Of a stretch of 64,000 nucleotides of DNA, positions 3,995 to 56,600 are shown piece by piece. The position numbers were made by a program, and so were the translations under genes. Position 1 is the first letter of the stretch. Every line of letters begins with the position of its first letter. Origin of the DNA: Heterodontus francisci (lineage: Eukaryota); the NCBI RefSeq assembly GCF_036365525.1, contig NC_090379.1, forward strand, positions 114,564,263 to 114,628,262, read 5' to 3'. The notes beneath the pieces are model-generated. The model made no database searches. It was given only the letters and a program-made list of their open reading frames with translations, and was not told where the DNA came from.

Positions 3995-5170
3995 TTTTTA
4001 TTCATTCGGATAGGTCAGCATTTATTGACCATCTCGAATTGTCCTCGAGGAGGTGGTGGTGAGCTGCTCTCTTGAACCGCTGCAGTCCTTGGAGTGTAAG
4101 TACAACAACAGTGCTGATGGGAAGGGAGTTCCAGGATTTTGACCCATGACAGTGAAGGAATAGCGATATAGTTCTGAGTCAGGATGGTGTGTGGCTTGGA
4201 GGAAACCTGCAGGTAGTGGTATTGCCATGCATCTGCTGCCCTTGTCCTTCTAGGTGGTAGAAGTCACAGGTTTGGAAGGTGCTGCTGAAGGAGCCTTGCT
4301 GAGTTGCTGCAGTGCATCTTGTAGATGGTACACACTGCTGCCACTGTGCATCGGTGATGGATGGGGTGCCAATCAAGCGGGCCGCTTTGTCCTGGATGGT
4401 GTCAAGCTTGAGTCTTGTTGGAGCTACTCCATCCAGGCAAGTGGAGAGTCACACTCCTGACTTGTGCCTTGTAGATGGTGGACAGGCATTGGAGAGACAG
4501 GTGGTGAGTTACTCATCATAGAATTCCCAGCCTCTGCCCTGCTCTTGTAACAACAGCATTTCTGTGGCTGGTCCAGTTGTTTCAGGTCAATGATGACCCC
4601 CCCCAAAGGATGTTGATAGTGGGGGATTCTGCGACAGTAATGCAGAACATCAAGGGGAGATGGTTCGATTCTCTCATGTTTGAGATGGTCTTTGCCTGGC
4701 ACTTGTGTTTCACGAATATTACTTGCCACATATCAGCCCCAGCCTGGACATTGTCTTGGTCTTGCTGCATTTCTACAAGGACTGCTTCAGTATCTAAGTA
4801 GTCACGAATGGCGCAGAACATTGTGCAATCATCTGTGAACATCCTCACTTCTGATGGACGGAAGGTCGTTGATGAAGCAGCTGAAGATGGTTGGGAACTA
4901 GGACACTACACTGAGGAACTCATGTAGTAATGTCTAGGGACTGAAATGATTGACCTCCAACAACCACAATCATCTTGCTTTGTGGTAGATATGACTCCAA
5001 ACAGTGCAGTGATTTCATTGACTCCAGTTTTTCTTGGGCTCCTTGATGCCATACTCGATCAAATGCTGCCTCGATATCAAGAACAATCACTCTCACCTAC
5101 GGAGTTCAGCTCGTCCATGTTTGGATCAATGACATCAGGAGCTGAGTGGCCCTGGCAGAACCCAAACAGT
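3995..5170 (-). mobile_element. Non-LTR retrotransposon family B (CR1/L2-group RT), 3' portion
   Basis: MFTDDCTMF RT motif. Same family as 13.6-14.5, 29.7-30.3, 39.7-42.0 and 53.5-56.1 kb. Confidence 0.85.
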
Positions 5171-5189
5171 GATAGAGAAATAGAGAAGA

Positions 5190-6430
5190 GGGGACCGGGG
5201 GGGGGGGGGGGGGGGGGGGGTGGAGAGGAGAGGAGAGGAGAGGGGACAGGGGGGGGGGGTGGAGAGGAGAGGAGAGGGGACAGGGGGGGGTGAAGAGGGG
5301 ACAGGGGGGGGGGGTGAAGAGGGGACAGGGGGGGGGGTGAAGAGGGGACAGGGGGGGTGGGGGTGAAGAGGGGACAGGGGGGGGGTGAAGAGGGGACAGG
5401 GGGGGGGGGGTGAAGAGGGGACAGGGGGGGGGTGAAGAGGGGACAGGGGGGGGGTGAAGAGGGGACAGGGGGGGGGTGAAGAGGGGGACAGGGGGGGGTG
5501 AAGAGGGGACAGGGGGGGGGTGAAGAGGGGACAGGGGGGGGGTGAAGAGGGACAGGGGGGGGTGAAGAGGGGACAGGGGGGGGTGAAGATGGGACAGGGG
5601 GGGGGGTGACGAGGGGACAGGGGGGGGGGTGACGAGGGGACAGGGGGGGGGTGACGAGGGGACAGGGGGGGGGTGACGAGGGGACAGGGGGGGGGGTGAC
5701 GAGGGGACAGGGGTGGGGGGGGGTGAAGAGGGACAGGGGGGGGGTTGAAGAGGGGACGGGGGGGGGGTGAAGAGGGGACAGGGGGGGGGGGGTGAAGAGG
5801 GGACAGGGGGGGTGAGAGGGGACAGGGGGGGGTGAAGAGGGGACGGGGGGGGGTGAAGAGGGGACGGGGGGGGGTGAAGAGGGACGGGGGGGGGTGAAGA
5901 GGGGACGGGGGGGGGGTGAAGAGGGGACAGGGGGGGGGGTGAAGAGGGGACAGGGGGGGGGTGAAGAGGGGACAGGGGGGGGTGAAGAGAGGGACAGGGG
6001 GGGGGTGTGAAGAGGGGACAGGGGGGTGGTGAAGAGGGGACAGGGGGGGGGGTGAAGAGGGGACAGGGGGGGGGTGAAGAGGGACAGGGGGGGGGTGAAG
6101 AGGGGACAGGGGGGGGTGAAGAGGGGACAGGGGGGGGTGAAGAGGGGACAGGGGGGGGGTGAAGAGGGGACGGGGGGGGTGAAGAGGGGACGGGGGGGAG
6201 AAGAGGGGACGGGGGGAGAAGAGGGGGACGGGGGGGGGGTGGGAGAGAGGGGACGGGGGGGTGAAGAGGGGACGGGGGGAGAAGAGGGGACGGGGGGAGA
6301 AGAGGGGACGGGGGAGAAGAGGGACGAGAAGAGGGGACGGGGGGAGAAGAGGGACGGGGGGAAGAGGGGACGGGGGGAAGAGAAAGGGTGGAAGGGAGGG
6401 AGGGAGGAAGGAAAGAGGAGGGGGGGAAGG
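5190..6430 (+). repeat. G-rich minisatellite, ~21-23 bp unit GGGGACAGGGGGGGGTGAAGA
   Basis: Dozens of tandem units with variable G-run length; strong G-quadruplex potential. Confidence 0.95.
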
Positions 6431-6543
6431 AGAAAAGGGGATAAGCGAGGAGAGATTGAATGCTTCAGTTTCTATTTCGCTAGCTAAAGGTTCCCCTGCA
6501 AACCACCCTCCACCACCAACCCCCATCCCCGGGCGGTACTCAC

Positions 6544-6650
6544 GGTGAATTAGCCTGTTGCAGCACAGGCCGCACGCTCACATAGCTCGCGGCTTCATGT
6601 TGATGCCGCGCGTGGGGAACATGGGAGGGTGGGGGGGGGGGGGTGGTTCT
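6544..6650 (-). other. ZNF106: Probable non-coding first exon of the divergent upstream gene (ZNF106 by synteny); 5' end approximate
   Basis: CpG-rich segment ending in a strong minus-strand donor (TTCACC|GTGAGT, GT at 6543-6542). Identity is inferred only from the human head-to-head ZNF106/SNAP23 arrangement; no ZNF106 coding exon is seen. Confidence 0.5.
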
Positions 6651-6800
6651 GTTGTCGCGCAAGCGCGAGCTGGGCATCCGACGCATGCGCAATGCGACGC
6701 TAAGTGATTATATATATATATATACGTCACTACGGTACGGGGCATGCGTAGTGAGAAAGTATAAGCAACAAGAGTTGAAGGGAAGTGCTGCTGCGGAGTG
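6600..6800. promoter_or_regulatory. CpG-rich bidirectional promoter (ZNF106?/SNAP23)
   Basis: NRF1-like ACGCATGCGC 6681-6690, CRE-like TACGTCAC 6723-6730, ETS GGAAGTG 6781-6787 and a (TA)n tract, between two divergent splice donors. Confidence 0.75.
6745..6800 (+). other. SNAP23: SNAP23 non-coding exon 1 (start approximate; second assembled copy ends at 7260)
   Basis: Donor GGAGTG|GTGAGT at 6800/6801 in the CpG island. The first coding exon has its own acceptor, so an upstream UTR exon is required. Confidence 0.65.
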
Positions 6801-6914
6801 GTGAGTACTTGGGGTTACGGTACGATGTAATCCTTATCTTCTTCCCTTCACCACCCTCACCAACTAACTCCTTCCCTTCGCCACCCCCCCCCACCAATTA
6901 ACTCCTTCCCTTTA

Positions 6915-7114
6915 NNNNNNNNNNNNNNNNNNNNNNNNNNNNNNNNNNNNNNNNNNNNNNNNNNNNNNNNNNNNNNNNNNNNNNNNNNNNNNNNNNNNNN
7001 NNNNNNNNNNNNNNNNNNNNNNNNNNNNNNNNNNNNNNNNNNNNNNNNNNNNNNNNNNNNNNNNNNNNNNNNNNNNNNNNNNNNNNNNNNNNNNNNNNNN
7101 NNNNNNNNNNNNNN
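6915..7114. other. Assembly gap (200 N) with duplicated flanks
   Basis: ~6658-6914 is repeated at ~7116-7370, with differences mainly in homopolymer and (TA)n length. Confidence 0.95.
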
Positions 7115-7329
7115 TCGCAAGCGCAGAGCTGGGCATCCGACGCATGCGCAATGCGACGCTAAGTGATATATATATATATATATACGTCACTACGGTACGG
7201 GGCATGCGTAGTGAGAAAGTATAAGCAACAAGAGTTGAAGGGAAGTGCTGCTGCGGAGTGGTGAGTACTTGGGGTTACGGTACGATGTAATCCTTATCTT
7301 TCTTCCCTTCACCACCTCACCAACTAACT

Positions 7330-8705
7330 CCTTCCTTCGCCACCCCCCCCCACCAATTAACTCCTTCCCTTTGCCCCCCCCACCAACTACCTCCATCCCT
7401 TTGCCCTCCCCCCCGCCAACTACCTCCTTCCTTTGCCCTCCCCCCCGCCAACTACCTCCTTCCCTTTGCCCCTCCCCCCCGCCAACTACCTCCTTCCCTT
7501 TGCCCTCCCCCCCCGCCAACTACCTCCTTCCTTTGCCCTCCCCCCCCGCCAACTACCTCCTTCCCTTTGCCCTCCCCCCCCCGCCAACTACCTCCTTCCC
7601 TTTGCCCTCCCCCCCCCGCCAACTACCTCCTTCCCTTTGCCCTCCCCCCCCCGCCAACTACCTCCTTCCCTTTGCCCTCCCCCCCCGCCAACTACCTCCT
7701 TCCCTTTGCCCTCCCCCCCCCCGCCAACTACCTCCTTCCCTTTGCCCTCCCCCCCGCCAACTACCTCCTTCCCTTTGCCCTCCCCCCCCCGCCAACTACC
7801 TCCTTCCCTTTGCCCTCCCCCCCCCGCCAACTACCTCCTTCCCTTTGCCCTCCCCCCCCCGCCAACTACCTCCTTCCCTTTGCCCTCCCCCCCGCCAACT
7901 ACCTCCTTCCTTTGCCCTCCCCCCCCGCCAACTACCTCCTTCCCTTTGCCCTCCCCCCCCCGCCAACTACCTCCTTCCCTTTGCCCTCCCCCCCCCCGCC
8001 AACTACCTCCTTCCCTTTGCCCTCCCCCCCCGCCAGCTACCTCCTTCCCTTTGCCTCCCCCCCCCGCCAGCTACCTCCTTCCCTTGCCCTCCCCCCCCCC
8101 CGCCAACTACCTCCTTCCCTTTGCCCTCCCCCCCCCGCCAACTACCTCCTTCCCTTTGCCCTCCCCCCCCCCCCGCCAACTACCTCCTTCCCTTTGCCCT
8201 CCCCCCCCGCCAACTACCTCCTTCCCTTTGCCCTCCCCCCCGCCAACTACCTCCTTCCCTTTGCCCTCCCCCCCCGCCAACTACCTCCTTCCCTTTGCCC
8301 TCCCCCCCCCCGCACAACTACCTCCTTCCCTTTGCCCTCCCCCCCCCCCGCCAACTACCTCCTTCCCTTTGCCCTCCCCCCCCCCCCCCGCCAACTACCT
8401 CCTTCCCTTTGCCCTCCCCCCCCCCCGCCAACTACCTCCTTCCCTTTGCCCTCCCCCCCCCCCGCCAACTACCTCCTTCCCTTTGCCCCTCCCCCCCCCC
8501 CCGCCAACTACCTCCTTCCCTTTGCCCTCCCCCCCCCCGCCAACTACCTCCTTCCCTTTGCCCTCCCCCCCCCCCCGCCAACTACCTCCTTCCCTTTGCC
8601 CTCCCCCCCCGCCAACTACCTCCTTCCCTTTGCCCTCCCCCCCCCGCCAACTACCTCCTTCCCTTTGCCCTCCCCCCCCCCCGCCAACTACCTCCACCCC
8701 CACCC
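7330..8705 (+). repeat. C-rich minisatellite, ~34 bp unit CCCCCCCCCGCCAACTACCTCCTTCCCTTTGCCCT
   Basis: About 40 near-identical tandem units in SNAP23 intron 1. Confidence 0.95.
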
Positions 8706-8709
8706 CCTC

Positions 8710-9500
8710 AGATTAATTAAAGCCAGCATAGATTTGTTAAGGGAAAATAATATTTTACTATTTTTAATGAGGTAACAGAGGGTTAATGGGGAATGCGGTT
8801 GATGTGGTGTACTTGGACTTCCAAAAGACATTTCATGAAGTGGCACATGATATGCTCTCCAGCAAAGTTTAACCCCAAGGAATAAATGGGACAGTGACAG
8901 CATAGATACCAAGTTAGCTGAGTGATAGGAAACAGTACTGGTGAATAGTTTGTTTTTCAGACTGGAGGTATTCCCCAGGAGTCGGTACTAAGGCCACTGC
9001 TTTTCTTGATCTATATTAATAGCTGAGACTTGGATGTGCAGGGCACAATTTCAAAATTTCCAGATGACATGAAACTTAGTATGGTGATGTCCTTCAAGAG
9101 GATATAGACAGGCTGGTGGGATGGGCAGACATGTGGCAGCTAAAATTTAATGCAAACTGATACATTTTGGTTGGAAGGAGGAGAAGAAGCACTATAAACT
9201 GAAGGATACAATTCTCAAGGGGGTGCAGGAGCAGTGAGACCCGGGGGTGTACGTGCACAAATCATTGAAGCTGGTAGGGCAGGTTGAGAAACTGGTTAAA
9301 ATGGCATATGGATTCCTGGGCTTTATAAATAGGGGTATAGAATACAAAAGCAAAGAAGTTATGGTAAAACCTTTATAAAACACAGGTTCACTTTCAGCTG
9401 GAGTATTGTGTCCAATTTTGGGCACCATACTTTAGGAAGGATATTAAGACATTAGAGTGCAGAAAAAAATTACAAGACTGTTTCAAGGGAGGAGGAACTT
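8710..9500 (+). mobile_element. Degenerate CR1 LINE RT fragment
   Basis: gtgtacttggacttccaaaag (VYLDFQK) and ctggagtattgtgtccaattttgggcacca ([10 protein letters not shown]). Confidence 0.85.
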
Positions 9501-17784: not shown

Positions 17785-20700
17785 GTGAGTCAGAACTGTG
17801 GGATAGGTGGGGGAAAATGGTGAGCTTTCAGCTGGAAGCAGGCTGGGGAAGAGTTGGGTGGGCTGAGGATACATCCTTCGAAACAGCTGTTGGTGTTTTT
17901 TTTTCCCTAAACTTTCCGCCCCCTTTTTTTGGGACCCCTCTAAGACACGGAAGGCTGTGGAACCCTCCAGGGTGAAGGCCTGAGTCCCTCCAGTACCCCA
18001 ACAGACTGTTAACAGTACCCAATTACTCAGTCAGTGTCAGGTGTCACAGCTGAGCCCTATTCTGTCTTCTCCTATCGCCTCGCTTTCCAGTAGCAGGCAC
18101 TGGATAGAGTGGTTGCCCATCATTACTCTGAGGAGCATTGTAGTACCTCTAATGCTTTTCCAGCTGAGATCAGCTCGCTTCTTAAGCAAAACAGTTAAAC
18201 AGCTCAGACCTGAGGTCCCGTCCCCACCCCACCCCACCCCAAGCAACTTGCTGACCATTCCAAATGTTGGTTATGCTGGGGTTGGTCAGGTGAGCTCCAC
18301 AGGGTGCTCCCAGTGTCCTCGGTTCAGCACGGGCTGCTCTGGCTTAGCCTTTCCAGCAGTCACAAGTTTATTTAATATCTGAAGGAGGCTGACTACCAAA
18401 TGCTCAGTGCAGAGTCCAACAGTAAAATTACGGAAGCACAAACTATCGTGGCTGGTGAATGCAGGGTTTGTGCGTGGCAATACCCCATGCCTGATGATTT
18501 CTGTTCCTCTGTTCACAGTCCCTGGAGAGCACCCGGAGGATGCTGCAGCTGGCGGAGGAGGTAAAGTCAAACTACATCTTCTGTTGGGGTTACAGTACAG
18601 AGTGCAGGGAGATGGGCTCTGTCAAGGGATATAGAGACAGGGAGACATGGTCTGTAATCACACTTTACTGTGACGCTGGAGCAGGCACTGTTTTTAGGTT
18701 TAATATCGCATTCTGGCATGTGCTGGAGATGTGATTGTAGCTTTCACCGGGGGGTGGGCGGGGGGAGGTCAATCGAGCAGACTGGAGCTGATCAGGGCAA
18801 GGTTGTACTTGTTTCTGTTTGTCTATATTAAAACTCTGTTGCTTGTGCACACCTCTTGCTTGTGCCTCATGCATAGTGTTATTGTCACTCTTTAAACTTT
18901 CACCATTATAAATTCACATCCACGGTCTTGCAGCACTAAAGGTCATTCAGCGCATCCAGCTTCTTTTGAAAGAGCTATCCAATTCCCCATAACCTTGTGA
19001 ATTTTTCCCCTTCAAACACGTATCCAGTTCCCTTTTGAAAGTTATTATTGACTCTGCTCCCACCGCTCTTTCAGGTAGTGTATGCCAAATCATAACTTGC
19101 TGCATTTAGGAAAAAAAAAATCTTATCTCTGTCTGGTTCTTTTGCCAATTATGTTGCATCTGCGTCCTCCTGATTACTGACTGTCCTGCCAATGGAAACC
19201 AGTTTCTCATTTATTCTATCACAATCCCTTAGTTTTGAGCACTTCTGAATCTCCCCTTAATCTTCTCGGGGAATACCCCAACTTCCCCAGTCTCTCCACT
19301 TGTTCTGGCTACCATTCTGATAAAGCACCTCTGCATCCCCTCTAAAGCCTTTATATTCTTCCCATAGTATGGTAGCCAGAACTGAATACACTATTCCAGC
19401 TGATACCTGACCAGTGATTTATTTTTTAAAAAGTGTAACTTCCTTTCTTTTATACTCTATGCCTCTGGTTATAAAGCCTGTATACGCTTTTAACATAAAA
19501 GCAAAATACTGCAGCTGCTGGAAATCTAAAATAAAAACAAAATGCTCTCTGAAAGAGTGACTATTTCTGTCTCTGCAGATGCTGCCAGACCTGCTGAGTG
19601 TTTCCAGCACTTTCTGTTTTTTATACTCAACAGCCTTCTCAACATGTCCTGCCACTTTGAGATTTGTGTACATACACCCCCAGATATCTCTGTTCCTGCA
19701 ACTGCTTCAAAACTGTACCATTTGGTTGATATTGCTTCTCATTCTTCCTACCAAAACACATCACTAGATACTTGTCTGTTAAATTTCATCTGCCATGTCC
19801 AGGCTTATTTCACCAGTCTATGATGTTCTGAAGTCTCGCTATCTTACTCATTGTTTACTACTTTTGAATACTGAGGAACCCCATTGTACACTTCCCTCCA
19901 GTCTGATAAGCAGCCGTTCTCTGCTTTGTGTCCCCTAGCCAATGTAGTATCTGTGCTGCCACTGTCCCTTTAATCCCAAGGGCTTTATTGGTGAAGTATC
20001 GGAGAAAGGGAGGAGCAGAAATGCATGTGAAGAAATGCTTACTGAAGGAGAGCACTGCAGCTGAAGAGCAAGCACAATGTTTGCAGGTTCACATTCTGGC
20101 CCCACCCCCGACCAATCTTATTTTGACTCTTCAGAGAATTATCCCAGTATGAACAGTAAAACAAATGCTGTACATATTGGGAATTTGAAAGAGGCTGGAG
20201 ATGGGTAGACAGATCCTTGAGGTTCTGGGCTCTTAACCCACACAGTGGCTAGCACTCTGGGTGTGAGCAGGCAGGGGGTATGGCTGTACCTTCTCACTAA
20301 TTCTGGCACAGTTCATCAGGTGGTGGATTTGGAGAATTGAGCCCTGTGATAACTATAGAATGTGCATGGCTCAGTGTTGGAGTCCCCACTTCTGTGCAGC
20401 CCCCTCCTGTGATTAAAGTGACCACTCAAGTGTGCTGACTCTTCCTTTTATTTCAGAGCAAGGATGCTGGTAGCAAGACCATGATTATGCTGGATGAGCA
20501 GGGAGGTGAGTGCAGAGCTCTGCTTGATACTGTGGGGCTGGTGTGGGTGGGGAGGTAGGGCCGGGGTTGTTCCACCGGCCCTAGGGCTGGTTAGCGTGGG
20601 CCCATACTTGCAGGGAAGGGGTGGGACAGGGAACATGGGGATGATCCTGCAGTGAACAACGGGTACAGTATCCTTTACAACAGTTGGACTGATGAGGGCA

Positions 20701-23700
20701 GACTGTTGTGCGTGTGGAATCTTTGCCTCCGGTTATGTATCCAGGGGTGCTGTCAGCCACTGAACGATTGGGCCATCCAATGGAGAGAAACTTCCCACCT
20801 CCTTGTTCCCTCTCCTGAGTTAAATGTTAAAAAGTGAGATAATGTTCCTCAGTACAACCAAACCTCTGGCCTGGTAGGGGAGAGTGTTAGCTGAACAGTA
20901 ATAGGGGTGGGGGGGTATTGCCAATTGGGTCATAAATTGTCCACCTGCTGATTCCCACATGGAGTAAGCTCAATCTTGGCTGGGTTGTTTCCACTATGGT
21001 GGAGCAAACTGTGTCCCTTGGCAGAACTGGCACACTCTGGTAGGACAATTCCTGACCCATGAAGTGTGTGTGTTGGGAGGAAGACACTAGGAGGAAGGAG
21101 ACTCTGGTTGTTCCAACAGAGCTTCCTGCACATTGTGGCATTCTAAAGACTCATACATTTAAACCGGGGTTTGGGGGGGCAGGTGGTGGAAAAACAGATA
21201 GAGAGCCCCTCAGCTGCTCCACACAACACCTGACCTTGCAACTATGTCCTGTTTTTGTTTAGAACAACTGAAGCGCATTGACGAGGGGCTAGATCAGATC
21301 AATCAGGATATGAAGGAGGCAGAGAAAAACCTGACCGACCTCACCAAATGTTGTGGCCTGTGTGTGTGTCCCTGCAGCAGGTAGGTGTCACTGGGCAAGT
21401 CCAGTGAATGGCTTCCAACTAACCCCCCACCCCAATTTCCCAACCAAGCCAGGGTACGATAAGAAAAAAAAAAAGGACTTGAATTTATATTGCACCTTTC
21501 ACGACCTCTGGACATCCCGAAGTTACAGCCAGTGCAGTCACTGTTTTAATGTGGGAGACGTGGCAGGCAATTTGTGCACAGCAAGTTTCCAAAACAGCAA
21601 TGGAAATGATTAGATAATCTGTTTTAGTGATGTTGATTGAGGGTCATTGGCCAGGATACTGGAGAGAACTCCCCTGCTCCTCTTCGAAAGATCTTTTGGA
21701 TCCAGCTGAGAGGGCACACAGGGCCTGGGTTTAACATTTCGCTCAATAAATAGCACCTCTGACAGCGTAGCACTCTCTCAGTACTGCATTGGAGTGTCAG
21801 CCTGGATTATGTGCTCAAGTCTCTAGAATGGGGTACTCTCAACCTTCTGACTCTGAGATGGGAGTAATACCACTGAGCCATGGCTGACAATACGCAGCAG
21901 TGTGAAAAGAATGCAGCACCTTCAGTCCAAACAGGGCACCCGTCAGTGTCCTTTAAATTACATCCCAGATGTTAAAATGGAGTTTGAAATTGAGTGAAGG
22001 ATATTAGATGGGCAGTGGCTATTTCACACAGGGGCAGACAGACTTGTTGCTGGGGTTAAGGAATGCTGTTCAGACGGTGTACAGGGAGCTTTGTGTACGT
22101 AGTATGCCTACCAACCCAGCTGATGCTGTTGCTGTGTTGAAGGCTGACTGGTTGTCTGTCCACAACTTGGTATCAAGTTGCTGTACGCAGCACACACTGG
22201 TGCTGACAGCTGCCAGGAGATTTGCCACATGCTGCCACTATATGTAAAGTCTGTGCAACTGTGTCTTGTAAATTGATCAGAATTTTGCTTCAAGCCCAAA
22301 GGAGTGTCTTCAGTATTCAAGCTCTGGAACGGTAGCTGTGGTTAATGTGTGTGACATGCTCAGCATGAAGTGTGATGATTGAGTTTTCAGGTCTGTTGTT
22401 TGTCAAACTAACTCCTTTCTGCTGGTTACAGTTCAGCTGCTCTCTAACAATCACAATCTGCTCGCCACTTTTGCTACCACTGTCCATTAGCAAGTTAATC
22501 AAATCAAACTGTGGCTGACAGAATTCTAATTCCAGAGGGCAGCTCAGGAGGAGTGCTTCAGGCTGTTTCTCTAATGCTAGAATCCTCATTAACACTGCTC
22601 TACCTATAATGTCTATTCTTTGAGTTCATTTTCTTGCTCTCTCTCACTCTTCCCCCGCCCCTTTTTTCTTCCCTATGCTTCATTCATTGGAGATTAACCC
22701 TAATATAATCCTGAGTGGAAAATGGGAGCCAGTCAGTGACGTACACAGTGGATTCTGACATGGAGAACACTGCCGATTTGGGAATCGTGTGCTGTCCGCA
22801 TATTGAGTAGGTGGTACATTTAACTGCATGCTGCATGAACCTGGTGTGTGCCTGTTTAAATCGTGTAAATGTTGCAAGTCTGTGTCGTTAAAACAAAGAA
22901 ATTATATTTCTACATCGCCTTTCACAATCTCAGGATGTCACAAAGCATTTCGCACGCAATGAAGTATTTCTGAAGTGTAGTCACTGTTGGAAATGTTGCA
23001 GCCAACCTATACACAGAAAGACTCCACAAACAGCAATGTGATAATGACCAGATGATTTTTTTTTTTGTGGTGTTGATTGAGGAATAAATATTGGCCAGGA
23101 CTCAAAAGATACCCCTGTGTGCTTTGAAATAGTGCCATGGGATCTTTTATGCCCACTGAAAGGGAAGACAAGGCCTTAGTTTAAGGTCTGCTTTGAAAGA
23201 CCTCCAGTGCAGCACACTCTCATTATTGTACTGGTGTGTTAGCCTAGATTATGTGTTCAAGTCAAAATATGTAGGGAGAAGGATTAAGGGAATTGCTAAA
23301 AGGAATACTGGAACCACCAACAGAATGACAAACAGTGGTGGACTGAGAAGGAACTGGAAATGAGCAGAGTGTTGAACAACTAAACCTAACAGGAAGAATT
23401 TCTTTTGGTAAATCATGACAGTAAATGAAGTTGTCCAATGGAAATTGAGAAACATTAATGTCATCCTTGTTTCCTTCCTTAAAAGACTTAACCTACTAAG
23501 TAAGGGCATTGCCCAGTTCTGTCCTAAAATGGCAATCGGGGTCTTGTATACACCATAGAACGCTGATTTGTATATTAAAAGAGGCCTACAGCCTGATTCA
23601 GGCAGAAGGCCCTGAGGACGATAGAGACTGCTACGTAGCAGTAATGGGGTGATACTAACTAAAAAAGACAAACAGTAGCCACCATCCTCGGAGATTCCAC

Positions 23701-26700
23701 GACTAGACAGTGGCGCAGTGGTTAGCACCGCAGCCTCACAGCTCCAGCGACCCGGGTTCAATTCTGGGTACTGCCTGTGTGGAGTTTGCAAGTTCTCCCT
23801 GTGTCTGCGTGGGTTTTCTCTGGGTGCTCCGGTTTCCTCCCACAAGCCAAAGGACTTGCAGGTTGGTAGGTTAATTGGCCATTATAAATTGCCCCTAGTA
23901 TAGGTAGGTGGTAGGGAAATATAGGGACAGGTGGGGATGTGGTAGGAATATTGGATTAGTGTAGGATTAGTATAAATGGGTGGTTGATGGTTGGCACAGA
24001 CTCGGTGGGCCGAAGGGTCTGTTTCAGTGCTGTATCTCCTAAACTAAAAACTAAACTTTCACATCTGTAGGTTCCAGACTAGTTCAACAACAACATCTCC
24101 AAGATGGCCTTAATGTGACTAAGGGTGCTAAGTGAGACTAGAGACAAAGTCCATGATGAAGTTCCACGTGAAAAGGCAGAGATGAGTTTCAGGTAGAGGA
24201 TATCCTGGGTAAAACCTCGAGGTGGGAGCAGAATTGGCTGACCGAGAAGGAGTCTTAAGTCCCCATGTAGCTGGTCCCCATCATCTACTGCATAAACCCC
24301 TCCGTTCCACTGGCAACAATGGTGCCATCTGCAAACTATGAAGCTTCCTTTTCCAGGTCATTGGAAAAATTGTTGAATCAGTCCCAACACTGAACCTATC
24401 TAGAACCTTTCCCATTGAAAGATAGCACCCCCTGCTGATCCATTTGCATTTATACTGAACCTCCACCCATGACACTTTCCATTCAAAGACTGTTTCCTAA
24501 TTGCCCAGCTCAAATTTGATATGTCTGTGCACCACCACCAATACCAGATTTCCTCCAGTAGGCTGCTTGTGGAAAACTCTAAAGACATGAAGTAGTCAGC
24601 CATACAATCTTGCCTAATTAAGCACTAGTTATTTTATCAAAGGTTCCAGCTTGCTGGGCTGACCTGACCTGTCATTCCTTGTGCATATCCACACTACCCA
24701 TTCGTTTGCATTCCCCTGAAAGCCTTGCCAGCTTGACCTTGATGACTGATTGTAGAACTTACATTGGTGCAGAACTTCACCCAGTCCACTTGAGGTACTC
24801 CACTTGCTCCAGTCCTCTATCACCCCTTTCAGAGGTGTCCCTAAAGTGGGTTATTTTCAATTGTCTAAGATCCCTTGTGGTTCAGTTGGTTACAGTTGCG
24901 TGTAACTGAGGTCGCTGTCTGGTTTAGTCCCTGGTCTGTGCTGAGTTAGCTTATCTGTCAGGTCGCCAAAATAAACCCATGTGGCATTGCGTCAGGGAGG
25001 GAGAAATCAGCCGGGTCCTTGCTCCTGATTCTATTAAGAACTGTCTGCCAAGGACCAAACTGGACACTTAATGGGGCTGAGGTGTGAAAGGTGGTCCCCT
25101 GAGTAAAGTGGCAGGGACAGGACCAGGGCCTGTAGAGACAGACTCCCAGCAGTTGATGACCTTGAGGGGTGGAAAAGTAGTTGGGAGGGCAATTCACCAT
25201 TTTGGAAAGGATCTCTGGATTGCAGTGCAGCCCATTACAGGAAAAGAAGATTGATGCTTGTAGCTACTGCAGGTTCCATATGTTTCATTTACATTGCTTA
25301 TCTTCTGTGCCATGAGCTGAAAACCAGAGACATCATGAATTGGTATGACCCATGTTCAGCATGTTTTTTTTTAAAAAAAAAAAAGCTGTTTATACACTAC
25401 CTTTCACAACCTCAATGTCCCAATAGGCTTTACAGTCAATGAAGTTCTTTTGAGCGTAGTCACCGTAGGAAACACCTACCTCCCTCCCCAACTGAAGGAT
25501 GCCTGGATGTGAATCTTTCAAGAACTCATCATGACATCACTGTCTGTCTTTTTCTCTGTCGCAGGGTCAAGAACTTCGAGATGGGAGATGTGTACAAGAA
25601 GGCCTGGGGCAGCGACGCTGATGGGAACACTGGTAGAGTCGTCTCCAATCAGCCAAGCAATGCGCAGAACCACCATGAGATGGCCAGGCGGGGTGGTGAA
25701 GGAGAAGGCTACATTACCAGGTAGCCAGGCTGGGGCTCTGTCACTGTCCAAAACCAGGGCACAGACATCTGGCATTGGTCACATGTACAAGTCACATCAT
25801 TCCCCATATGCTGTAATCGGCAAGCAAACAAACAGCCCTTTGACTGCTGATCCCCAATGAAGACAGCAGGCATGACCTTTCCAGCTCTGCCCAGCCATCC
25901 CATAAGTTAGCACAGCCTTTCCACCTCTAACCCTGGAGATAGAGCATGACCTCTCCATCCTTATCAACCCACCAGAGGAGAACAGACATGACCTCCAGGG
26001 GTGGTGGGAAGGAGCAGGCATGACCCCTCCTCTTCCATCACCAACCAGAGTAGAGAATTCACCTCATTCCTATTGTCTCCCACACAGCCTTTGATTACTA
26101 GAGGCCCACTGGTAAATTTGTTTTAATAACAAAAGGCAGATGATGAAGAAGCATTCACTGTACCAAGTCCCCAACATAATGTGAAAATAACCTGAGAATT
26201 TGGGTTCCTTCTCAGGATAACCAATGATTCCAGAGAGGATGAAATGGAAGATAACCTGCATCAAGTGGGCAATATCATTGGAAACTTGAAAAACATGGCT
26301 ATTGACATGGGCAATGAAATAGAATCCCAAAACAAGAAGATCGACAATATTACTGAGAAGGTACCTGCTGTATTTCTGCCTTCATTCCTCGTGATGCTAA
26401 GGCTTTCAGACTTTAGATAACTCTTACAGGGCGAGTCTTGGCTCCCTAAAGTGTTGAGTATCTTCCCTTGAGAGCAAGGTAACAAGCTCAGGATAGCAAA
26501 CAGGCAATCTCTCCTCAAATAACTGTGGTTACTGGGCCCACCCTAGAGAATCACATCAGGCCTTGTTCCAGGCCTTTAGTTACAAGTGAATGTGTAGCAC
26601 AGTGTCAAATATCTATTTACACTTTTGTGGAGATTTATGCCAGCCAGTTCCTTGCAGAAAAAGCAGAATATCCGAAGCTTTGTTTCATGGATAGTTTTTA

Positions 26701-31129: not shown

Positions 31130-37503
<6,374 letters not shown>

Positions 37504-53600: not shown

Positions 53601-56600
53601 AATGGCATTACCATCGCTGAATCCCCCACCATCAACATCCTAGGGGTTACCATTGACCAGAAACTGAACTGGACCAGCGACATAAATACTGTGACTACAA
53701 GAGAAGATCAGAGGCTAGGAAACCTGCAGCGAGTAACTCACCACCTGACTCCCCAAAGCCTGTCCACCATCTACAAGGCACAAGCGGTGTGATGGAATAC
53801 TCTCCACTTGCCTGGATGGGTGCAGCTCCAACAACACTCAAGAAGTTCAACACCATTCAGGACAAAGCAGCCTGCTTAATTGGCGTCCCTTCCACCAGCT
53901 TCAGCATTCACTCCCTCCACCACTGCGCACAATAGCTGCAGTGTGTACCATCTACAACAGGGTTGTCCAACCTTTTCGGGCAGAGGACAGCCAAAAATTA
54001 CAATTTTTGCTCGGACTCTGGGGGACGGTGAGCAAATTTCGAGAGAAAAGGGCATTCAAAATATATGTTGCTAATTAAAAACAACAAATTTTTGTGAAGA
54101 AGCTTTAAATGAGAAGACTAATTTATTGACTTATTTTCTTGTCACTATATTGAAAACGATTTTAGTGACATTCCTGGCATTAATTTTGCTTGCATAAGTA
54201 GTCAATCTCTGCCTGTACACTTGATCAATGTCCATCTTTGAGGAGATCTGTCTCAGTCTCTGTCTCTCCCTATGTTTCCCTCTCTTGTGTGTTCCTCCCT
54301 CTCTATGTCGTCCTCACTCTCTGTGTTACCCCCCCCCGCCCCTCCTTCTCTCTGTCCCCTCTTCTCTCTCTCTCTCCCCCCTCTCTCTCTCTGTTCCCCC
54401 CTCTCTCTGTCCCCCCCTCTCTCTCTCTGTCCCCCCTCTCTCTCTCCCACTGTCTCCGTCTCTTCCTCGCTCCCTCTGTCCCCCCGCTCGCTCCCTCTGT
54501 CCCCCCGCTCGCTCCCTCTGTCCCCCCGCTCGCTCCCTCTGTCCCCCCGCTCGCTCCCTCTGTCCCCACGCTCGCTCCCTCTGTCCCCCCCGCTCGCTCC
54601 CTCTGTCCCCCCCCCGCTCGCTCCCTCTGTCCCCCCCCCCGCTCGCTCCCTCTGTCCCCCCCCCGCTCGCTCCCTCTGTCCCCCCCCCGCTCGCTCCCTC
54701 TGTCCCCCCCCCGCTCGCTCCCTCTGTCCCCCCCCGCTCGCTCCCTCTGTCCCCCCCCGCTCGCTCCCTCTGTCCCCCAGCTCGTTCCCTCGCCCTCCCC
54801 CCGCTCGCTCCCTCGCCCTCCCCCCCTCTCCCTCGCCCTCCCCCCTCTCCCTCGCCCTCCCCCCCTCGCCCTCGCGCTCCCCTAGCCCTCGCGCTCCCCT
54901 AGCCCTCGCGCTCCCCTAGCCCTCGCGCTCCCCTAGCCCTCGCGCTCCCCTCGCCCTCGCGCTCCCCTCGCCCTCGCGCTCCCCTAGCCCTCGCGCTCCC
55001 CTAGCCCTCGCGCTCCCCTAGCCCTCGCGCTCCCCTAGCCCTCGCGCTCCCCTCGCCCTCGCCTTCGCGCTCCCCTCGCCTTCGCGCTCCCCTCGCCTTC
55101 GCGCTCCCCTCGCCCTCGCGCTCCCCTCGCCCTCGCGCTCCCCTCGCCCTCGCGCTCCCCTCGCCCTCGCGCTCCCCTCGCCCTCGCGCTCCCCTCGCCC
55201 TCGCGCTCCCCTCGCCCTCGCGCTCCCCTCGCCCTCGCGCTCCCCTCGCGCTCCCCTCGCCCTCGCGCTCCCCTCGCCCTCGCGCTCCCCTCGCCCTCGC
55301 GCTCCCCTCGCCCTCGCGCTCCCCTCGCCCTCGCGCTCCCCTCGCCCTCGCCCTCCCCTCGCCCTCGCCCTCGCCCTCGCCCTCCCCTCGCCCTCGCCCT
55401 CGCCCTCGCCCTCCCCTCGCCCTCGCCCTCGCCCTCCCCTCGCCCTCGCCCTCCCCTCGCCCTCCCCTCGCCCTCGCCCTCGCCCTCTCCCTCCCCTCGC
55501 CCTCCCCTCCCCCTCGCCCTCGCCCTCCCCCCGCTCCCCCGCTGGAAGCACATTCTAGCCTCAGCAACTGAGCTGTGAAACTCAGTTTTTAAAAAGGCCA
55601 CTCTGCAAGAAGACAAAGGGAATTTTCATATCTCCACTCATGGAGCCCTGGCGAGGATGAGGAAAGGCCGCAGGCCGGATGGAAACCTTTGGCGGGCAGA
55701 ATCCTGGTCTGCGGGCCGTATGTTAGACAACCCTGATCCACAAGATGCATTGCAGCAACTCACCAAGGCTCTTTCAACAGCACCTTCCAAACCCACGACC
55801 TCTACCACCGAGAAGGACAAGGGCAGCAGTTGCATGGGAACACCACCACCTACATGTTCCCCTCCAAGACACACACCGTCCTGACTTGGAACTATATCGC
55901 CGTTCCTTCACTGTCGCTGGGTCAAATTCTTGGAACTCCCTTCCTAACAGCACTGTGGGTGTACCTACCCCACATGGACTGCAGCGGTTAAAGAGGGCAG
56001 CTCACCACAACTTCTCAAGGGAAGTTAGGGATGGATAGGGTTAGTGTCGCCTTGCTAGCAACGCTCACATCCCAAGAACGAAAAAAAAAACACTCCCAGT
56101 ACAGTACTGAGGAAGCGCTGCATTGTTGGATGTGCCATCTTTCAGATGAGACATTGATCCAAGGTCCCATCCGCACACTGAGGTGGATGTAAATAACCCC
56201 GTGGCACTATTTTGAAGAAGAGCAAGAGATTACTCCCAGTGTACTGGCCAATATTTATCCTTCAACCAATGACCCCATTATCGTTGTATCATACAACTAC
56301 CAGGATGGTGAACTAGATGGACCTTGGTATTTTTCCATCTAGCAATTCCAATGTTCCGATGTAACGATCACAAAACAGATTACCTGGTCATCGTCAAGTT
56401 GCTGTTTGTGGGAGCTTGCTGTGTACATAGAAACATAGGAGCAGGAGTAGGCCATCGAGCCTGCTCCGCCATTCAATATAATAATGGCTGATCATCCACT
56501 TCAATGCCTTTTTTCCACACTATTCTCATATCCTCTTATGTCATTTGTATTTGGCAATTTGTCAATCTCTGCTTTAAACATACTCAATGACTCAGCTTCC

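Follow-up and report, generated by a model that had tools for sequence, protein, structure and literature searches.

A candidate regulated alternative exon with a downstream TGCATG pair in intron 5 of Heterodontus francisci SNAP23

The window analyzed here, a 64-kb stretch of Heterodontus francisci DNA, contains seven coding exons that match P0126 (RefSeq synaptosomal-associated protein 23-like, Heterodontus francisci) residue for residue. In a tree of 29 proteins, the gene is placed as the SNAP23 orthologue: it groups with gnathostome SNAP23 in a clade of 16 rows that has 100/100 support, apart from the SNAP25-like paralogue. Exon 5 encodes the end of the first SNARE helix and a five-cysteine cluster. 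The intron that follows (21381–25564) separates this cysteine-cluster exon from the linker exon and harbors the candidate exon described below (Table 1). Two direct copies of one dispersed repeat, 68% identical (21531–21821 and 22974–23263), flank the unique 1-kb stretch in which the candidate lies. A sequence-only reading of this DNA had described the stretch as free of transposable elements; it is unique in the window as judged by self-comparison only, but it is not special, being one of 25 such stretches of at least 600 nt. Elsewhere, the window holds LINE reverse-transcriptase fragments at ~40.6 kb and ~57.1 kb, and large low-complexity purine/pyrimidine-skewed tracts at 5000–8800 and 54200–55600, one of which spans a 200-N gap (6915–7114).

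Table 1. Features in and around SNAP23 intron 5 (window coordinates; a slash marks the end of an exon).
Feature	Position	Strand	Remarks
SNAP23 exon 4	20457–20505	+	Ends in phase 1; exact mapping of P0126 residues 34–49
SNAP23 exon 5	21263–21380	+	118 nt; donor CAG/GTAGGT
ACTAAC, QKI/branch-point-like motif	22407–22412	+	285 nt upstream of candidate acceptor
Pyrimidine tract, strongest of intron 5	22625–22688	+	Within a 68-nt AG-free zone; TGC at 22676
First AG past tract, weak GAG acceptor	22690–22692	+	Real acceptors of the gene are CAG or TAG
Candidate alternative exon	22693–22810	+	Bounds provisional; inner acceptors end at 22715, 22728, 22732, 22736, 22748, 22765
31-codon open frame	22715–22807	+	Weakly like exon-5 peptides; in register with exon 6 via donor 22806
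Two overlapping weak donors	22807–22816	+	TGA/GTAGGT (exon end 22806), TAG/GTGGTA (exon end 22810)
Tandem TGCATG-C-TGCATG, RBFOX motif pair	22825–22837	+	Motifs start at 22825 and 22832, downstream of donors
SNAP23 exon 6	25565–25720	+	Linker; starts in phase 2

The coordinates given earlier for the ACTAAC motif, the pyrimidine tract, the first AG, the donor at 22810, and the TGCATG pair all proved correct when the sequence was re-checked. The cluster that they form is more than chance: the strongest tract of the intron is followed by the sole close TGCATG pair in 64 kb. In a scan of the window, the 46 pyrimidines in 50 positions at 22625–22674 have no equal on the + strand except in low-complexity repeats at 54–55 kb, and a CTCAC at 22643 within the tract is a candidate branch point. 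The two TGCATG motifs lie one base apart, 15–19 nt past the donors, and are the only pair within 40 nt of each other among the 24 TGCATG occurrences on both strands. Pairs within 10 nt arose in 1.1%, 0.5%, and 0.2% of 1000 intron shuffles at word sizes 2, 3, and 4, respectively; the motif-cluster tests were post hoc, and the choice of the locus by eye from a very large scan inflates all p-values. Of 39 strong tracts (at least 42/50 pyrimidines), many of them pieces of low-complexity runs, one is followed by two GCATG motifs within 250 nt, namely the intron 5 candidate. Upstream of the candidate, five CTAAY motifs fall within 310 nt, a density reached by 0.1% of overlapping windows. The 11 YGCY motifs in 300 nt are borderline (5%), and the QKI motif is on the side opposite to that in mouse. 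Searches for structured RNA were negative, with no Rfam match, no unusual fold of 22560–22900 (z +1.33), and, among 57 short inverted-repeat pairs in 20506–23500 examined without a shuffle control, none that makes a convincing docking or bridge pair.

The splice sites that would bound the exon are weak. The GAG of the first AG had been called a poor acceptor, a judgment borne out by the six real acceptors of the gene, all of which are CAG or TAG. The next 75 nt hold six further AGs, of which three are CAG. The donor ending an exon at 22806, overlooked by the sequence-only reading, has the same hexamer, GTAGGT, as the exon-5 donor. With a frequency matrix, the donors at 22806, 22810, and 22813 score −0.7, −1.3, and −1.0, whereas the gene's six real donors range from 0.7 to 7.2; 18–21% of the GTs in the window score as well as 22806 or 22810. 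A stronger donor at 22843 (top 2.7%) was set aside, as it would place the RBFOX pair inside the exon; cassettes ending there meet a stop with all seven acceptors. Depending on the sites chosen, the candidate exon measures 41–121 nt. The equality in length with exon 5 holds arithmetically for the bounds 22693–22810, but it hinges on preferring donor 22810 to the equally weak 22806. Because several donors are equally weak, the 118-nt coincidence rests on one choice among equals.

As a cassette between exons 5 and 6, the segment carries a premature stop in 25 of 28 acceptor–donor pairs (seven acceptors by four donors), so a poison outcome would be the default arithmetic of the candidate splice sites. 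Of the three open forms, two start at 22766 and are 45 and 48 nt long, and the third is 78 nt long (22729–22806). Forms of at most 51 nt that are both open and a multiple of three are achieved only with the poor acceptor at 22765, a GAG preceded by 9 pyrimidines in 20 and separated from the tract by six AGs. When the segment replaces exon 5, three of 28 pairs are again open, all of them via donor 22806. Translation reproduced the 13-residue peptide described in one frame of the segment, the stop after LTLI when it is spliced as a cassette, the immediate stop when it replaces exon 5, and the 45-nt form that stays open (22766–22810). Two or more exon junctions lie downstream of the cassette stop.

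The proposal that the segment is a decayed exon-5 duplicate was assessed with seven kinds of similarity test, whose p-values range from 0.005 to 0.66. At the DNA level, ungapped alignment to exon 5 gives 40 matches in 118 positions, equaled by 3.0% of 4606 AG-started segments. The count of 19 matches in the first 44 nt was reproduced (0.9%), but the p-value becomes 0.15 once any sub-window is allowed, and a gapped comparison yields p 0.66. Peptide comparisons are borderline: a BLOSUM match gives p 0.023 against the gene's own exon 5 and p 0.005 against a 13-peptide panel; with a panel of 101 exon-5 peptides, 9 of 1075 tiles across the window reach the same score (shuffle p ~0.02, about 0.01–0.02); and an exon-5 profile HMM and an ungapped profile give p 0.17 and p 0.13, respectively. 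Allowing for window choice leaves the DNA similarity without significance (p 0.15, with p 0.66 for the gapped comparison), and the peptide similarity is borderline (p 0.005–0.17). In the peptide match, window position 22715 is paired with base 15 of exon 5, a register that differs by eight bases from that of the DNA match, so the two matches do not represent a single signal. Suggestively, the most exon-5-like frame is the one that donor 22806 would join to exon 6; its best peptide matches are DLG-type SNAP25-like copies. The candidate segment was not found by tblastn as an exon-5 copy, and the 31-residue frame has no Pfam match and only four matches among 1.84 billion representatives, all to unrelated repeat proteins. 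The region also ranked high when scanned with the exon-5 HMM, a result that was discarded, as it derives from cysteine codons in the downstream TGCATG pair, outside the candidate exon. A weak exon-5 peptide profile match elsewhere in the window (~37000–37090, minus strand; E 0.0015 within the window), with stops nearby, is probably chance.

Protein and DNA searches place the junction in a broader context. The gene models of 10 frog species have 9–14 extra residues at the SNAP23 exon 5/6 junction and one rodent model has an 11-residue insert there; these are predicted gene models, with the position of the inserts in intron 5 inferred from the protein junction. A further 39 SNAP23 rows include six with inserts, all from frogs. 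Because frog gene models carry inserts at the junction, a cassette at this position would predate mammals. The frog inserts (P0144–P0147, P0157–P0159, P0204–P0209) are in frame, directly follow the cysteine cluster, and are strongly polybasic in several species. The salamander, lizard, and teleost SNAP23 members among the matches listed have no insert. Among the matches listed (the best 120 of 326 in the SNAP23 protein search), none of the 32 SNAP23 sequences of chondrichthyans, which cover 23 named species and include two Logan proteins, contains an insert either. This count argues against a well-used in-frame form in sharks and says nothing about a poison form. When isoforms that are short or altered were sought by a protein search with exon 6, the five clusters returned were all canonical.

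A metagenome scan of at least 79 loci yielded two recognized as vertebrate SNAP23 with intron 5 DNA. One is teleost-like and covers the whole 1.5-kb intron 5 (L051); the other is bird-like and covers 5.9 kb of an incomplete intron 5 (L061). Both contain a single TGCATG and thus lack the pair, and neither resembles the shark segment (p 0.27 for L051 and 0.56 for L061). Teleosts have two SNAP23 paralogues, and snap23.1 names occur among the proteins listed. The two introns count against uniform conservation, an argument weakened by the teleost paralogues and by the incompleteness of L061. In L061, a long pyrimidine tract is followed by a short segment ending TTAG/GTATGA (4980–5090), possibly a small exon, with no adjoining RBFOX motif. 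Separately, two hagfish SNAP25-like proteins of 204 residues each (P0152 and P0153) are identical outside the exon-4 region, a pattern that mutually exclusive copies of exon 4 would produce.

These data suggest a model, to which we assign a probability of about 40%, in which the segment is a weak alternative exon, included where RBFOX is high (striated muscle and neurons), that would mostly add a premature stop and would correspond in position to the Snap23 cassette of tetrapods. The long pyrimidine tract would define the 3' splice site, and RBFOX bound just downstream of donor 22806 or 22810 would rescue the weak donor, as in the mouse microexon. Use of the first AG would introduce a TAA five codons into the exon, far upstream of the later junctions. 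A stop well upstream of later junctions leads to nonsense-mediated decay. SNAP23 mRNA decay is predicted here because the stop is early and later junctions lie downstream of it, and decay would lower SNAP23 output in RBFOX-rich tissues. In human brain, SNAP23 protein is low relative to SNAP25 (PMC3104942), which fits such damping by analogy and proves nothing for shark. The tissue regulation proposed by the sequence-only reading gains support from the non-random signal cluster, the mouse microexon in the same intron, and the frog inserts at the junction, but the acceptor and donors are weak and the QKI motif is on the wrong side.

Several alternatives have to be set against this model. A serious though doubtful one is that the cluster consists of ordinary intron signals or the leftovers of a disused exon, with no regulated splicing. 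The weakness of the acceptor and both donors points that way, as do the selection of the locus from a large scan, the lack of conservation in the two other vertebrate introns, and the missing annotated isoform in the 23 named chondrichthyan species among the matches listed. The absence of chondrichthyan inserts would be expected if inclusion were unproductive, and a segment that is never spliced fits it equally well. Against chance or decay stands a joint architecture that is unique in 64 kb, located in the intron where mouse has a like adjacent RBFOX pair. Another alternative keeps the exon but makes it coding, like the tetrapod microexon, so that it would lengthen the spacer from the cysteine cluster to the zDHHC17-binding motif and add cysteines. 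Three of the 28 cassette pairs are open, the 15 residues of the 45-nt form approach the 9–14 of the tetrapod inserts, and S-acylation of SNAP25 is sensitive to this spacer (PMC7247313). This form would nonetheless depend on the poor acceptor at 22765, its peptide is unlike the 10 tetrapod inserts (p 0.75), and inserts number 0/32 in chondrichthyan proteins among the matches listed, compared to 10 frog species; it appears improbable. Highly improbable is an internal first exon, in which transcription would begin within the intron and the ATG at 22760 (GAC-ATG-G) would read through donor 22806 into exon 6, giving a short SNAP23 that has a CC anchor but, of the SNARE helices, only the second. Frame and phase fit, and GC-box-like CCCCGCCCC in the pyrimidine tract and TGACGTA at ~22738 were counted in its favor as presumed promoter-type motifs. 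Only five CpGs occur in 170 nt, however, no such protein is found among the five exon-6 search matches or the cluster lists, and the tract and AG-free zone suit an acceptor better.

The remaining alternative is that a diverged tandem duplicate replaces exon 5, with exon 4 joined to a start at 22716, 22737, or 22749 and donor 22806 joined to exon 6. The resulting protein would be in frame, but the second half of its first SNARE helix would be largely missing, and it would have two cysteines in place of five. All three stop-free forms share the exon-5 donor hexamer and two use CAG acceptors; the open frame is also the frame that resembles exon 5 (p 0.023, 0.005, and ~0.02). Exon duplication recurs in the family, as in the SNAP25 exons (PMC2581893) and in gene models P0003–P0011, which have a doubled exon 5. 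On the other side stand the results of the HMM, ungapped-profile, and gapped-DNA tests among seven kinds performed, the eight-base shift between DNA and peptide matches, and the inner acceptors, which have no pyrimidine tract of their own. No such protein occurs among the matches listed or the 1.84 billion representatives. In addition, older cDNA data place the SNAP25 exon-5 duplication in early bony fish, and the same source reports none in Torpedo (PMC2581893). The segment may be a decayed duplicate, with a borderline peptide match; a working exon-5 duplicate is judged unlikely. Quite improbable is its fullest version, a 450-million-year-old tandem copy of exon 5, ancestral to the tetrapod Snap23 microexon and switched by RBFOX for exon 5 via 22806 in muscle or nerve, giving a protein whose first SNARE helix is truncated and whose anchor has two cysteines.

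The shark segment is a well-placed candidate for a regulated exon. If it is a true counterpart of the tetrapod cassette, regulated splicing at the SNAP23 exon 5/6 junction would date to the jawed-vertebrate ancestor, and the regulatory scaffold would have outlived both exon sequence and outcome, since the outcome is a stop in shark, whereas frogs and mammals have an in-frame insert. As far as gene models go, the Snap23 cassette is already extended beyond mammals by the frog inserts. In-frame shark forms would change the cysteine-to-zDHHC17-motif spacer (PMC7247313). If the duplicate reading were true, exon-5 duplication would predate bony fish and the split of SNAP23 and SNAP25, and the date for the SNAP25 family would have to be revised. 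No report of a shark or frog SNAP23 alternative exon was found in the literature, although the supplements of a cross-species splicing preprint, whose main text does not name SNAP23, could list one (10.64898/2026.09.05.749416). The accessible portions of PMC12721327, PMC11719525, and PMC13069148 hold nothing on such an exon.

Known systems resemble the candidate to different degrees. SNAP25 exons 5a and 5b are mutually exclusive and differ by nine residues (PMC2581893). They belong to the same family and occupy the same exon position, one shark site pair also gives 118 nt, and other shark site pairs also keep the transition from phase 1 to phase 2. In contrast, the identity of the shark segment to exon 5 barely exceeds background, its 118-nt form meets an immediate stop when it replaces exon 5, and the open forms are 27–60 nt shorter. 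The exons 5a and 5b of SCN-alpha genes, RBFOX-regulated duplicates whose motifs are conserved to elephant shark, show that shark introns can contain exon duplicates missing from the annotation and that intronic elements linked to RBFOX can be very old (10.1101/2025.08.16.670673); those copies are plainly found by tblastn, unlike the shark SNAP23 segment. In the 3' architecture described for regulated microexons, a strong tract lies at some distance from a weak AG, and UGC stands between the two (10.1101/2024.09.17.613571); the shark tract, weak AG, and UGC are alike, although the shark segment is longer. Frog SNAP23 isoforms share the insert junction with the shark candidate; their inserts are in frame and annotated, with peptides unlike that of shark.

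The closest comparison is with the mammalian Snap23 exon 6 microexon, a 33-nt exon of striated muscle described as conserved in mammals (PMC12064062). In mouse, the microexon has a weak GC donor and requires the RBFOX2 motifs downstream of it, and the printed morpholino and primers show two TGCATG motifs directly adjacent to each other, with QKI motifs downstream and none upstream (PMC12064062). The shark candidate occupies the same intron of the same gene, after the cysteine-cluster exon, and likewise has a TGCATG pair downstream of a weak donor and MBNL-type YGCY motifs nearby. When the 13 nt that follow the donor dinucleotide in mouse are compared with 13,086 GT/GC sites, the shark donor at 22806 fits better than 99.1–99.9% of them under five gapped settings, which were picked after a first look by eye, part of the match being plain donor consensus; without gaps, the rank is only 8.7%. 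The mouse primer past the RBFOX pair shows no significant match to shark (7–15%), nor do the exon-body primer and QKI oligos, and the shark 15-residue peptide does not resemble the 10 tetrapod inserts. The donors also differ, GC in mouse and GT in shark, and the tetrapod cassette is in frame, whereas the shark candidate is mostly frame-breaking or stop-bearing. QKI motifs lie downstream in mouse, whereas the nearest shark ACTAAC is upstream; in this region, ACTAAY occurs at 22407 and 23654 only, with none in the 300 nt downstream of the candidate. Taken together, the shark segment is a candidate for an exon that would work like the RBFOX-dependent Snap23 cassette, differing from it in QKI position and in peptide.
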